From: Pecten maximus
Taxonomy: Eukaryota
Assembly: GCF_902652985.1 (NCBI RefSeq)
Contig: NC_047026.1
Location: 2,831,307-2,895,306, forward strand
Direction: 5' to 3'
DNA length: 64,000 nt
The notes under the pieces were generated by a model. It did no database searches and was not told where the DNA came from. It was given only the letters and a program-made list of their open reading frames with translations. The position numbers were made by a program, and so were the translations under genes. Below are positions 20,895 through 44,485 of the stretch, piece by piece (position 1 is the first letter of the stretch; each line of letters opens with the position of its first letter).

Positions 20895-21011
20895 TCAAAC
20901 ATTGTACATGTCCAGGATGCGGGCAGCCTCCCTCTTGCCAGTTTCCAGGGCACCGTGTGTAGTAGAGTAGTATTCCGAGTGTGTAGCTTCTCCGGCAAAC
21001 AGCAATTGGGG
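20895..21011 (-). CDS. Polyamine oxidase (flavin amine oxidase, PAOX/SMOX family), exon 5 (terminal)
   Basis: Minus-strand translation: '[38 protein letters not shown]'. This is the canonical C-terminal FAD-binding motif of polyamine/monoamine oxidases (human PAOX has '[23 protein letters not shown]'). The acceptor is 'ttcttccttcgttgcag|cccc' and the stop is TGA at 20897-20895. Confidence 0.85.
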
Positions 21012-21619
21012 CTGCAACGAAGGAAGAAATACAACATAAAATGTTAAATTTTAAAATGCTGTGTGTGGAATCAACAAGGAGAGATCAATATCGGATGAAC
21101 ATTAGCAAAACTTTTCAGTTTTTTAGTTAAAATCATCTAAAATCATCAACTCTTGCCTGCTGCATAATGCAAACTATTATCCCTATACAAATCCATTATG
21201 CAATATGGCAGAATTCACTATTTCAAATTTTCCAATTACGATCCTTATTTCCATGCAACAACACAATTGATTCTTTCATTTTTAGACTGTCTGTGAAAGC
21301 TGCAGCTTCTAGCTAATGTCAAACTGGCGAAGTGGCTGGAATATTCCCTGTCAACATGTGGTGACTAAAATTGCTTCACAATTGTAAAATGGCAATAAAC
21401 TTTGATACATATTGTGACAGCCATCTTTGTTACTACTGGAAACAAGCCAGAGGAATTGTTGGTAACAATGAAATACAAAAGGTATTCTTGATACCAAGTA
21501 TGGCGGTATATATCTTCCAATTCAGTAGGCAGATTCTGAATGTAAGAATGACAATGGCAGCATTTTCCACATGCCAGACTCCGAAGAGCTCAGGGAGGTT
21601 CTAAACTCCAGGGCAAGTT

Positions 21620-21710
21620 TTAACCCTTTCACCCCTACTAACCATATTGGACTTCAAATGATGAATGTATGGCAGAGTCCACTTAGGTTTCTTAGGGTTG
21701 AAAGGGTTAA
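21620..21710 (+). mobile_element. piggyBac-like MITE (83-bp body, 21624-21706) flanked by TTAA on both sides. It lies in PAO intron 4.
   Basis: 'TTAAccctttcacccctactaacc...cttagggttgaaagggTTAA'. The TIRs 'ccctttca'/'tgaaaggg' resemble the CCC...GGG ends and TTAA target of piggyBac. A second copy is at 4803-4894. Confidence 0.65.
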
Positions 21711-21741
21711 GTCCCCAAATACCTGTATGTTACAAGACTTA

Positions 21742-39904: not shown

Positions 39905-40813
39905 CCACAAGAACGTTGCCCGAGGTAACCTCCAAGGAGTAGATTTTGCGATACCAGGTATGTCGGAGATCTGGAATTTCCACCTTCGTCTTGTCCCATA
40001 ACATTTCGACATGGAACACTTCTGGGGGCGTGACTGGCTCGTCAAACTGAACTATCACCTTGTCCACAATGCCAAATCCCACACGATCAATGGACTGGAG
40101 CTTGTCTGGTGGCAGCGGTGGGTCGAACATGCGATCACAGGCCGCTTTCAGAACACCGAGGGAAACAGTCACTAACACATGATTTGCATAGAACACCTCT
40201 CCATTCTCGCACTCAACTTTGACCTCGTACTGGTTGTCATCGGAATGCTTGCGATTCCAGTGCACACATTTGACTGGGGTGTTAAGCAGTATGTTTTCTG
40301 TGGGGATGTTTTTCTTAAGAATGTTTAACACTGATTTGAAGCCATTGGGAATGGAGTAATGCACTCCAGGTAGTTCTTGATAACCCCCGAATTCACTGAG
40401 CGACACTTCGTGTAGCGTGTCACAACCAGATATACAGCACTCCAGCAGTTTCCTTTGGTCAAATAAAACTTCGCGTACATGGCGGTCTCCGTTGGAATAC
40501 CTTTCGACCATTGCTGAAAACTCACGTTCTAAGAATGCACCCACACTGTCATTTTCCTCTGGAGTAGGAATGTTGCTCTGATAGTAATCCTCGGCCTGGA
40601 TGATAAGTTGTCCGTACATGAGGTTGATTTGGTTCACAGTTCGCTCATTGATTTCCTCTCCATCCTCTGTCAGAAATGCGTTCTTGTGGCACAGGCCTTT
40701 GTCACCATGCCGCAATTCCAACAGATTGTTGTCGTAGGCAATCTTAAAAATGGGATTTCTCTCGATGCCGTGGATCCAGTTGGCACCCAACTCCACTTTG
40801 TTGTGGTCATCAT
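39905..40813 (-). CDS. Polyamine oxidase, exon 2 (large central exon)
   Basis: This is part of the 352-aa minus-strand ORF. It contains 'VELGANWIHG', the hallmark substrate-domain motif of PAOX/SMOX. It also contains 'HVLVTVSLGVLK', 'FDPPLP' and 'WYRKI', which align to human PAOX. The acceptor is 'ctgttttgtag|at' at 40815-40814. The donor 'gtgg|gtaggt' at 39904 corresponds to human '...HVLSG|W'. The ORF downstream of the donor ('RYSNYNDKDH...') has no homology and is read-through into the intron. Confidence 0.85.
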
Positions 40814-43800
40814 CTACAAAACAGTATCGGTCATAGCTTAAAGTGAAATATGAATTAATGCTGAGAACAGGTTTCATATAATATATACTATATTACTATA
40901 AATAGCACACTTCTGATGCCACGACAAAGCTAGAATATCTCAAGGAGAGTATCGTATTAAACACCCTTGGCTAGCGAAGTTTCCTGATTTAAGGATAAAG
41001 TGCACGTGGTGGTGTTCTAATTTTAAGACAAATTGTACTACTGATCAATTTAGCAACTAAGTAAGGTTCTGATTTATAGACAAAGCATTAACCTGCCATA
41101 ATAGGTGTTACAATTTAACAACAAAGAAGCATTCAAATTCAAATTACCAAAAATGATTTCGTTGATTATGATTCCCAATGTCCAACAAATAAAAATACAG
41201 CAATAAGCTTTAGGTACCCACATACATTAGAAAGCTAATTTTATACTATATTTAAAACCATTTCATGAAGTGATAAGTAATGGTAATGCACAATTTCAAG
41301 AATTTATTACTGTATTTATCTATCAATATTTATAAAAAAAAAAATCATTTTTCTAATCACTCTTGCACATGTACAACTGTCAGCAGTACTAGTGTACATG
41401 TCTTGCAGTAAACTTACCCATATAAATCTCTGGGCCCCCCCTTAGGTTGAAATCCCATTTTCTCATCAAGAGGATGAAATATTCTATTAACCAGTTAGGT
41501 TGAAATCCCATTTTCTCATCAAGAGGGTGAAATATTCTATTAATTAGCAATGCAAGTTAAGCAAGTCTCTGACATATGAAATGATCAAGTTTCATTAAGT
41601 TTGGGTGTACTCACTGAAATTTCCTTATGTATATATACCTGTAACATCACAATGAGACGATACTATACCGATGTCAAATTAAACCCTTCCTATCATGATT
41701 CATCAAGAAAATGCAGTCATTTGGTACAATCATGACATTGAGTGATTGATGATTTTGAGTTTGGAATTCAGGATCAAAACCTCAAATTTAATCAACATGT
41801 AAAGGAATAACTAAAGAAAACATTACCTTTAAATCCTATAGAAATGGCTTTTAGCAAGCTATTTTGTAACAGTTTACCCAGTAATATTCAGAATCTTGAA
41901 CTAAAGAAATCATTTAAGAATTTATACTTTTTTTGGGGACTATATGCAAAAATATGCAAAATCGTTTGAGCTTTTTGGATTATCTTGCGAATTGGCAGCA
42001 ACACAGCATTGATAAAACCTCCTGTTCTCTAATAAAGATGTAATTTCAAAATGAACTTCGGTCACAGTATATAATGTTGGTGACCAATCTTTTGCAGCAT
42101 GCACTACATATAATCAAATTTCATTCCAAATCTATATTGATCACATGCACACAGGGCCAATCAAGTTACCTGTATATGTCCCTAATTGAAGTACAACCTA
42201 ATGTAGCTTTGCCTGGAACCTGTATAGCTATATAACTAATGGTATTGATTTGTACCTCTTCTAAGATTTACTTGACAATTTATTAAATAACTTCTAGCGA
42301 TGACAGAACATGCTAGTGTGTGCTACAGCACCTGGTTGTCAGTACATGTCTTGTACCACCCAGGTTTAATATTACACTACAGATCTAGACAAGTAGTTTT
42401 TTAAATTGGACATCACAGAATTTAATACAATAAATTAATTCATTTCCATTATCATTAAAAGCATTTGCATTGATTTCAGATCACCAGTGATTTGTTGCTA
42501 AATATTATCACAACACTCAAGTCAATTTTCAAAATATATGCCTTTCATATTTTTTTGCTTCTTGCATTCCAATATATTTAAATAAATTAAAATCTGCACA
42601 TGACAAGTATGTATATACAGGGAAATGATAAAGTATTATGAAAACTGACTAACTGTGCAGATGAGTGTACATGTAGAACAATCCAGTTAAAATTCAAGAT
42701 TTTAATAATAGGTAGGACTAATAAAATTTTCAAAATCTGCTTGTTGGTGGCACTTAATCATGATTATGTAATTAGAATCGACTGAAATACTTAATACAAG
42801 ACTTGCGAATACATATCTTTCACCATCAAATATTTATCTTATATTGATACAAAACTAAAACATATTTATTTGTGTTTATTACAATACAAGGTTAGTCCAA
42901 CATCAAAGTAAGATTCTGCTTTTTCTCAAGGTTTGCCACTCATAAACACATGTGCCAAAGAACGTGGAAGCATGCTGAGTGACAGAGTAGTCTATATAGA
43001 GCTAGAGACAGTTACTTAACATTGTTCAAAGGAACACCTACCCATTCCTTTAACATCACAAATATCACTTAAATACCATTGTATATTTTTTTGAAAATTT
43101 GATTATTTGAAACTGCTTTTTATCATATGCAAAGGTGATCTCTCATAGCATATTACACACATTGCAGAAACTTACTATGGTACATTAATTAAAGCATAAA
43201 TGTTGGCAGTCCACAATCACTGGTCGAACCCCACCTGATCTCGTATTTTAGCTTGCAATTTTGCTAGCAAGTTTTTATATAGTTCATCCAGCAAGCTCTC
43301 ATGATCACCTGGCTTTAAAGAGTATTTTAGAGCGAGTGTTTTGACCTGATAAGCCTACAGAATTAAAAGTAAATATTGACATAATCAATGATATTCCATA
43401 AGGCTATTTTCATAAAGCTTTATATATGTGTTTCTGGTTGTCAGTGTGGATCTTAAGACAATGCCAATGGCCGCTCTGTAGACCTTTATATTAGGGAAAA
43501 TCAAATCATTAGCAAATTCATTTGTCCGTTTTTTTAGACTTTTGGTACATAAAAGAGGCTGATAAAGCCCTCTATGTCAAGATACATCTCAAATTACCCA
43601 ATAACATAATTTTATTTTGAAAAAAAAAACTGATTTTTTTTTTCAATATTAACTTCTGATCAATTCAAATTTGAAAAGAGTAACATCTGATTTTAATCAG
43701 ATTGAGAGTATATTCTACCGAATGCTTTGAGACCTTCGTCGTCTGTCTATGTTCTGATTTGTTTGTTATAATAGTCCCTATTCCCGTTTATTAATTACCT

Positions 43801-44295
43801 ACTTTCATTTTCAAAACACGTCACACGAACATGTGAACACACATATACATACAAATGTAATATCATTGAATGACATCACTGAACTATTTTGGTACTGAGT
43901 ATTGTCATTTGGTTTACCAAGAAAATAATGATAAATGTTAAATTATAGTCGACAGGGAAGCAAACGACTCAAAGCAATATATTGACCCGCCATTGGCTGC
44001 CCCTTATTCGTCACGTAAGTGTACTACGTATACGTCTGCGTCCTTGCGTGACCTTCACACCAGGGGCAGTCATTCACAAAATTTAAACGTCATAGTCGCT
44101 GACAAAGAACAACACAAACAAAGCAAATACATCACACGCTCACCATTTGAATACAATCTACATTGATACACACATTATGGAACATTTTAAACATTCTAGT
44201 TGCTTCACAGACAGAAGAAACCTATTTGAAAGGCCCAATCACGCAGAGATACCATGACAGCTGATAGAGAACCCTAGTAGGTCATGAAAACTTAC

Positions 44296-44485
44296 CGACG
44301 TTTATGGTCCAAATTCGCCCTCCCGTTCGATCAGAGGCTTCAATTATTTTGAAGTCTTTGAACCCGGCTTCTGTTAGATGGTTCCCGGCAGCTATTCCTG
44401 CTATACCGGCACCGATAATTAAGACTTTATAATTTCGTTTTTCATTGGTAGTGTCTTTTTCCGGCACAGTCGCATCCATATTCAT
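44296..44485 (-). CDS. Polyamine oxidase, exon 1 (start codon, FAD-binding Rossmann N-terminus)
   Basis: Translation 'MNMDATVPEKDTTNEKRNYKVLIIGAGIAGIAAGNHLTEAGFKDFKIIEASDRTGGRIWTINV'. It has the GxGxxG dinucleotide-binding motif and 'EASDRTGGRI' typical of flavin amine oxidases. The donor is 'aacgtcg|gtaagt' at 44295. Confidence 0.85.

Follow-up and report, generated by a model that had tools for sequence, protein, structure and literature searches.

The flavoenzymes of known structure that stand closest to the gene described here are human spermine oxidase (SMOX) and mouse N1-acetylpolyamine oxidase (PAOX). In both enzymes, an active-site lysine (Lys311 in engineered human SMOX and Lys315 in mouse PAOX) bridges to N5 of the flavin through a water molecule. 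Asn313 of PAOX hydrogen-bonds the N1-acetyl group of the substrate (PMC9355956), and the loop that carries Glu196 and Ser198 in SMOX is flexible, at a distance of more than 15 Å from the flavin (Diaz et al. 2022, PMC9355956). Invertebrate polyamine oxidases (PAOs) are basal to the duplication that separated the vertebrate spermine and acetylpolyamine oxidases (SMO and APAO), and a broad specificity has been suggested for them (Polticelli et al. 2012, PMC3517346). Here, we analyzed a stretch of 64,000 nucleotides (nt) from the scallop Pecten maximus (contig NC_047026.1, positions 2,831,307 to 2,895,306 of the forward strand; referred to throughout as the window) and, with high confidence, we assign five scattered pieces on its minus strand to one intact gene for a polyamine (spermine-type) oxidase.

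When joined, the five coding segments gave an uninterrupted open reading frame (ORF) of 1464 nt, encoding 487 amino acids followed by a TGA stop codon. The exons are as follows, with FAD standing for flavin adenine dinucleotide:

44296 to 44689, minus strand: exon 1, coding from 44485 to 44296 (190 nt; Met1 through base 1 of codon 64), with the GAGIAG FAD-binding motif in its coding part and the donor GTAAGT
39905 to 40813, minus strand: exon 2, 909 nt, residues 64 to 366, acceptor TTTTGTAG and donor GTAGGT
33040 to 33169, minus strand: exon 3, 130 nt, acceptor TTTCAG and donor GTAACT, starting at the W of VLVGWLSGKEA
21743 to 21860, minus strand: exon 4, 118 nt, acceptor TTTTTCAG and donor GTAAGT, holding RGSYSF
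17000 to 21011, minus strand: exon 5 (predicted 3' limit), coding from 21011 to 20895 (117 nt including the TGA) and holding the terminal motif (21 protein letters not shown)

All four introns, of 3482, 6735, 11179, and 731 nt, were bounded by GT and AG and interrupted the frame in phases 1, 1, 2, and 0 (cumulative exon lengths of 190, 1099, 1229, and 1347 nt). Exon 1 carried a 5' untranslated region (UTR) of at least 204 nt (44689 to 44486), and an in-frame stop codon was located four codons 5' of the ATG. The product of exon 2 corresponds to the substrate-binding domain, with VELGANWIHG (containing the catalytic His), the EVSLS loop, Lys315, and WYRKI, and the full-length product combined GAGIAG, VELGANWIHG, WYRKI, RGSYSF, and the terminal motif of 21 letters. 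An earlier note, made by eye from the sequence, had placed exons 1, 2, 3, and 5 at 44485 to 44296, 40813 to 39905, 33169 to 33040, and 21011 to 20895, all of which proved exact, and the joined ORF bore out the GT-AG junctions, the phases, the product of about 487 amino acids, and the motifs that it had listed. However, exon 4 had been set at 21859 to 21742, which kept the total length correct but left both splice sites one base out and produced an in-frame stop. Moving this exon by one base, to 21860 to 21743, resulted in canonical splice sites (acceptor TTTTCAG and donor GTAAGT) and in an open frame whose product equals the RefSeq protein; the corrected junctions were 33039/21861 and 21742/21012. 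The note had also held that only exons 1 and 2 could be seen among the ORFs. These two exons were indeed found within a 67-amino-acid ORF and a 352-amino-acid ORF (39819 to 40877), respectively, but exon 4 was partly visible in an ORF list as well, inside a 64-amino-acid ORF at 21707 to 21901 of the minus strand.

An exact-sequence look-up returned XP_033757047.1 ("spermine oxidase-like [Pecten maximus]"), which agreed with the 487-amino-acid product letter for letter and is recorded on a contig of 42.4 Mb. Thus, the gene is already known, the identical protein being part of the RefSeq annotation; the genome of the king scallop is the subject of Kenny et al. 2020 (PMC7191990). The complete Pfam profile PF01593 (Amino_oxidase; 1 to 443 of 443) aligned with residues 28 to 482 at 245.7 bits (cut-off, 19.8 bits; E = 1.5e-72). 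Additionally, PF13450 (NAD_binding_8) was matched with E = 3.6e-12, and the GxGxxG Rossmann motif IIGAGIAGIAAG occupied residues 23 to 34. The best solved structure was that of human spermine oxidase (7OXL; E = 7e-106, residues 20 to 486 against 6 to 484), followed about 88 bits lower by mouse PAOX (5LAE; E = 2.4e-79), while LSD1 (about 1e-38), maize PAO (1e-29), Fms1 (1e-25), and MAO-B (1e-14) gave far weaker matches; identity to the solved structures was approximately 40%. The full Pfam match, the 7OXL match, and the exact RefSeq identity are far beyond chance. We assign the gene, which is single-copy in the window, to the animal-type FAD-dependent polyamine oxidases. The membership in the PAOX/SMOX family that had been proposed is borne out, with the whole Pfam model covered, 7OXL and 5LAE as the closest structures, and identity to the RefSeq entry.

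In a collection of 5.8 billion proteins, the top matches were all mollusc proteins named "spermine oxidase-like," the first being that of Mizuhopecten yessoensis (XP_021378631.1), which was collinear with the scallop product at 93% identity and 100% coverage, with no gaps across the four junctions. Similarly, XP_069140848.1 of Argopecten irradians and XP_060076545.1 of Ylistrum balloti, which fall in the same 90%-identity cluster (at least 90% identity), were collinear and free of gaps. The pectinid orthologs differed from the P. maximus protein in the last few C-terminal residues. At least three further scallop genera thus possess collinear orthologs, and the architecture of the gene shows no departure from the family. 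An older M. yessoensis entry, OWF38359.1 (983 amino acids, "Spermine oxidase"), is an over-extended gene prediction of this enzyme: its C terminus is about 500 residues longer, the addition being a tandem repeat, with a unit of about 33 amino acids, that was wrongly translated.

Transcripts of A. irradians served as a sister-species stand-in for an RNA-seq test of the junctions, and the material for the ortholog XP_069140848.1 comprised five RNA-derived Logan contigs with uninterrupted coding sequence (CDS) and one genomic locus (L001). On their own genome, the mRNA contigs fell into five corresponding exons; the introns interrupt the gene where they do in P. maximus, and their lengths are about 5.6, 6.7, 13.3, and 2.7 kb compared with 3.5, 6.7, 11.2, and 0.73 kb in P. 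maximus. On the window, they aligned to 44689 to 44296, 40814 to 39900, 33170 to 33040, 21867 to 21743, and 21013 to 20893, and two of the contigs (L002 and L003) matched the first of these segments at 92%. Patchy homology to the A. irradians 3' UTR continued down to 17009, and a polyadenylation signal (AATAAA) was located at 17026 to 17021 in a sequence context that matches the 3' end of contig L002. These similarities suggest that exon 5 includes a 3' UTR of about 3.9 kb reaching down to approximately 17000, and that the transcription unit would span about 27.7 kb, from approximately 44689 to approximately 17000, both P. maximus ends being estimates. The extent of 23.6 kb given in the earlier note is thus correct for the coding span, but the gene itself is longer on both sides, with the 5' UTR extending to at least 44689.

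The same alignments bear on the possibility that the gene model is incomplete or chimeric, either because a coding exon is missing or because exons 4 and 5 come from a second paralog. The earlier note had raised both cases, as an in-frame alternative exon between exons 2 and 3 and as a paralog owning the exons at 20.9 to 21.9 kb. Introns 2 and 3 (6.7 and 11.2 kb) provide room for small exons in principle, and the junction evidence comes from sources other than P. maximus RNA. However, the end-to-end alignments to Pfam, to human SMOX (7OXL), and to four pectinid orthologs were gapless and continuous across the junctions, with no extra coding exon between exons 2 and 3, and the A. irradians mRNA contained the same five exons and no others. 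A tblastn search with eight homologs, ranging from scallops to a marsupial, found no second paralog in the 64-kb window and returned one high-scoring segment pair (HSP) per exon, in five HSP blocks in total; in addition, the joined product equals the RefSeq protein exactly. Neither case is supported, and we regard an incomplete or chimeric model as effectively refuted and its probability as minimal; we proceed with a single, complete five-exon gene.

The Nei-Gojobori method, applied to the CDSs of P. maximus and A. irradians, gave 0.018 nonsynonymous (dN) and 0.594 synonymous (dS) substitutions per site and a dN/dS ratio of 0.03. These values indicate that the oxidase gene is functional and under strong purifying selection. 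That the locus is instead an unexpressed or decaying pseudogene that has kept its open frame is hardly credible: the 487-codon frame is intact and retains all catalytic residues, the dN/dS ratio is 0.03 at a dS as high as 0.59, expression of the ortholog is seen in several RNA assemblies of A. irradians, and the 5' UTR, the proximal promoter region, and a block in intron 1 (see below) are conserved. Nothing was found in favor of a pseudogene, apart from the transcript support coming from A. irradians. The antisense ORFs over the exons, which had been dismissed as artifacts, are indeed by-products of the composition of the coding strand; neither these nor the intronic ORFs of the gene had a Pfam match, and the antisense ORFs lie opposite exons under the strong purifying selection described above.

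To place the functional gene relative to the two vertebrate enzymes, the residues of the substrate pocket were compared in an alignment of 23 homologs with 7OXL and 5LAE, using the discriminating residues of Diaz et al. 2022 (PMC9355956). The positions are listed below with the residue of engineered human SMOX first and that of mouse PAOX second:

His of WIHG: His78 in the scallop, catalytic and conserved
Lys311 / Lys315: Lys315 in the scallop, catalytic and conserved
Glu196 / Leu195: Glu in the scallop (in EVSLS), SMOX-type
Ser198 / Ala197: Ser in the scallop (in EVSLS), SMOX-type
His212 / Asp211: His215 in the scallop, SMOX-type
Asp356 / Leu361: Glu358 in the scallop, SMOX-type by a conservative change
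Trp371 / Phe375: Trp in the scallop (in VGWLSG), SMOX-type
Glu188 / Val187: Ile in the scallop, hydrophobic and PAOX-like
Thr309 / Asn313: Val313 in the scallop, of neither type

Five of the seven SMOX pocket residues were thus SMOX-type or conservatively replaced in the scallop protein, and two were not (Glu188 to Ile and Thr309 to Val). The catalytic His was found in all aligned homologs and the Lys in all but two, which carried Arg (Mya and Mercenaria). Val313 was shared by all 18 lophotrochozoans aligned, while position 188 was occupied by Ile in 15 of them, by Val in 2, and by Tyr in 1; the Ile188/Val313 variant was also present in the one insect sequence aligned (Leptinotarsa).

The scallop protein belongs to the same fold family as human SMOX (7OXL/7OY0; PMC9355956), aligns with it from end to end, and has the same FAD motifs and the same catalytic His and Lys; Glu196, Ser198, His212, and Trp371 are retained, as is an acidic residue in position 356. 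It differs from human SMOX in having Ile for Glu188 and Val for Thr309, and the long insertions of vertebrate SMOX are missing (the native SMOX of the marsupial Trichosurus has 555 amino acids, compared with 487). Mouse PAOX (5LAE/5MBX) is of the same family and length class and has the same catalytic His and Lys, but its Asn313, Leu195/Ala197, Asp211, Leu361, and Phe375 are replaced by Val, Glu/Ser, His, Glu, and Trp in the scallop. PAOX also has a C-terminal peroxisomal targeting tripeptide (PTS1), whereas the scallop protein ends in -YNV, which is not a PTS1 when judged by the PTS1 consensus; human SMOX is likewise without one. Both hallmarks of PAOX, Asn313 and the C-terminal PTS1, are therefore absent from the scallop protein (Val313 and -YNV).

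Because of the SMOX-type pocket residues, the Val at the position of Asn313, and the lack of a PTS1, the protein is most likely a cytosolic, spermine-oxidase-like FAD enzyme that would convert spermine back to spermidine, possibly with a broader specificity; both the substrate and the subcellular location are predictions from sequence. Strict SMOX orthology is not expected, because invertebrate PAOs are basal to the SMOX/PAOX duplication, and the scallop gene is accordingly an outgroup to that duplication rather than a strict SMOX ortholog (PMC3517346). Alternatively, the enzyme may not be a spermine oxidase at all but an N1-acetylpolyamine oxidase (PAOX/APAO type) or an ancestral PAO of broad specificity, which we consider possible but unlikely. 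This alternative would agree with the origin of invertebrate PAOs before the SMO/APAO split and with the broad specificity proposed for them (PMC3517346), as well as with the hydrophobic Ile at position 188 (Val187 in mouse PAOX), the residue at position 309/313 that is neither the Thr of SMOX nor the Asn of PAOX, and the mouse PAOX match, which is still strong at E = 2.4e-79. However, SMOX scored about 88 bits above PAOX, the Glu and Ser of EVSLS, His215, Glu358, and the Trp of VGWLSG are all SMOX-type, Val313 lacks the hydrogen bond donor with which Asn313 contacts the acetyl group (PMC9355956), and a C terminus of -YNV is not a PTS1.

The assignment of the gene as an intact oxidase of the spermine type is thus the one we prefer, and the points that weigh against it are of different kinds. 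The prediction of a substrate from single residues is weak, given the flexibility of the Glu196/Ser198 loop and its distance from the flavin, and two pocket positions are not of the SMOX type (Ile for Glu188 and Val for Thr309). The literature consulted for this analysis contains no biochemically characterized mollusc PAO. Additionally, the junctions are taken from the RefSeq model, the transcripts of the ortholog, and protein collinearity, not from P. maximus RNA.

Extrapolating from the structures of its homologs, human SMOX and mouse PAOX, we would expect a spermine-type oxidase of this sequence to work as follows. The N-terminal GAGIAG Rossmann motif and the C-terminal FAGEATH segment would hold FAD noncovalently, and the polyamine would enter a tunnel that runs between the FAD and substrate domains. 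The flavin, assisted by His78 and Lys315, would then oxidize the endo-side C-N bond at the secondary amine N4 of spermine or an acetylated polyamine. Hydrolysis of the resulting imine would yield a shorter polyamine and 3-aminopropanal or acetylated 3-aminopropanal, and FADH2 would be reoxidized by O2 with the release of H2O2.

The conservation between P. maximus and A. irradians extended beyond the coding exons. The first approximately 500 nt of intron 1 aligned between the two species, with a distinct block:

43983 to 44136: conserved noncoding block in intron 1 (core; wider limits, 43975 to 44140), single-copy, 160 to 310 nt downstream of exon 1

Over 162 nt, this block showed 95% identity to the equivalent position of A. 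irradians intron 1, compared with only 83 to 92% for the coding exons and a neutral expectation of 0.41 for the proportion of synonymous differences (pS), or a dS of about 0.6. It contained TGACGT, TACGTGACG, a CCAAT-like motif, and an imperfect palindrome. There was no Rfam match to the block at a permissive threshold, and folding relative to shuffled sequences was unremarkable on the gene strand (minus; z = -0.3) and showed mild stability on the opposite strand (plus; z = -2.7). The block is probably an intronic cis-regulatory element. More specific readings would be that the block controls polyamine catabolism, for instance as a stress-, hypoxia-, or polyamine-responsive enhancer or as an alternative promoter, or instead encodes a structured RNA of the opposite strand, and that the Ile188/Val313 pocket variant marks a specificity distinct from both vertebrate enzymes; we hold these readings to be speculative and unlikely.

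Approximately 100 nt directly upstream of the mapped mRNA 5' end (44708 to 44834) were also conserved with A. irradians. This segment is probably the core promoter and includes the CRE-like (cyclic AMP response element-like) palindrome TGACGTCA at approximately 44733 to 44726. Comparison with the A. irradians upstream flank revealed no conserved upstream neighbor gene, the approximately 100 nt of proximal promoter being the only conserved part, and the gene that lies upstream in A. irradians (L001, 1 to 2666) had no similarity to the window.

The introns carry several repeats and mobile elements, including a short interspersed nuclear element (SINE)-like retroposon and a miniature inverted-repeat transposable element (MITE):

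23816 to 24607: minisatellite in intron 3, 28 bp in 27.5 copies
25097 to 25499: minisatellite in intron 3, 48 bp in about 8 copies
21888 to 22098: tandem repeat in intron 3, directly 5' of exon 4, 74 bp in 3 copies
approximately 35259 to 35478, minus strand: SINE-like retroposon in intron 2, about 220 bp, in the orientation of the gene
21620 to 21710: MITE in intron 4, 91 bp, 32 nt from the exon 4 donor

The 48-bp minisatellite was the source of repetitive plus-strand ORFs of 155 and 115 amino acids. The SINE-like element lay between the two copies of a perfect 14-bp target-site duplication, TTTGATGGAGTATA, and on the gene strand its head contained, by eye, a box A-like TGGCCAAGTGA and a box B-like GAGTTCGAAACC. 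A tRNA origin of this element is likely from these motifs; an Rfam scan of its head at E ≤ 1 made no tRNA call and returned only two chance-level microRNA matches. A second, partial copy of the element was found at 16796 to 16865 with 89% identity. The MITE had terminal inverted repeats of 27 nt (TTAACCCTTTCACCCC...GGGTTGAAAGGGTTAA) starting with TTAACCC, and a second copy, 91% identical, was located at 4803 to 4893. The description of the introns as loaded with minisatellites, one SINE with target-site duplications, and MITEs therefore stands for the first two, while for the last a single MITE was confirmed within the gene and the plural is not supported.

Several features of the window lie outside the oxidase gene:

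9498 to 10975 and 61083 to 62459: arrays of a 155-bp satellite, about 9 to 9.6 copies each
14958 to 15987: minisatellites of 50 bp in 14 copies and 45 bp in 7.5 copies
52516 to 52591, minus strand: tRNA-Phe(GAA) gene, intact, 69.8 bits in Rfam
52999 to 53260: minisatellite of 30 bp
50088 to 50570, plus strand: ORF of 160 amino acids, rich in Lys, Ser, and Thr

The two satellite arrays were about 92% identical to each other, mutually inverted, and approximately 50 kb apart, bracketing the region of the oxidase gene, and a diverged monomer of the same satellite was present in intron 3 of the A. irradians ortholog (L001, 29151 to 29257). The two adjacent minisatellites at 14958 to 15987, just downstream of the predicted 3' end of the gene, gave rise to a spurious ORF of 182 amino acids (15587 to 16135). 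The tRNA-Phe gene was the only match (at 52518 to 52590) in an Rfam scan of the whole window, and the 30-bp minisatellite adjoins it. The 160-amino-acid ORF, the only sizeable nonrepeat ORF upstream of the oxidase gene, had no Pfam match.

Overall, reading by eye recovered the correct five-exon gene over 24 kb of repeat-rich introns, with a slip of a single base. As an ordinary, conserved housekeeping enzyme in polyamine catabolism, the scallop oxidase adds little new biology. However, the conserved element in intron 1 is a candidate for regulatory study, and the Val that mollusc PAOs carry at the position of the SMOX Thr and the PAOX Asn could help to reconstruct the ancestral substrate specificity.

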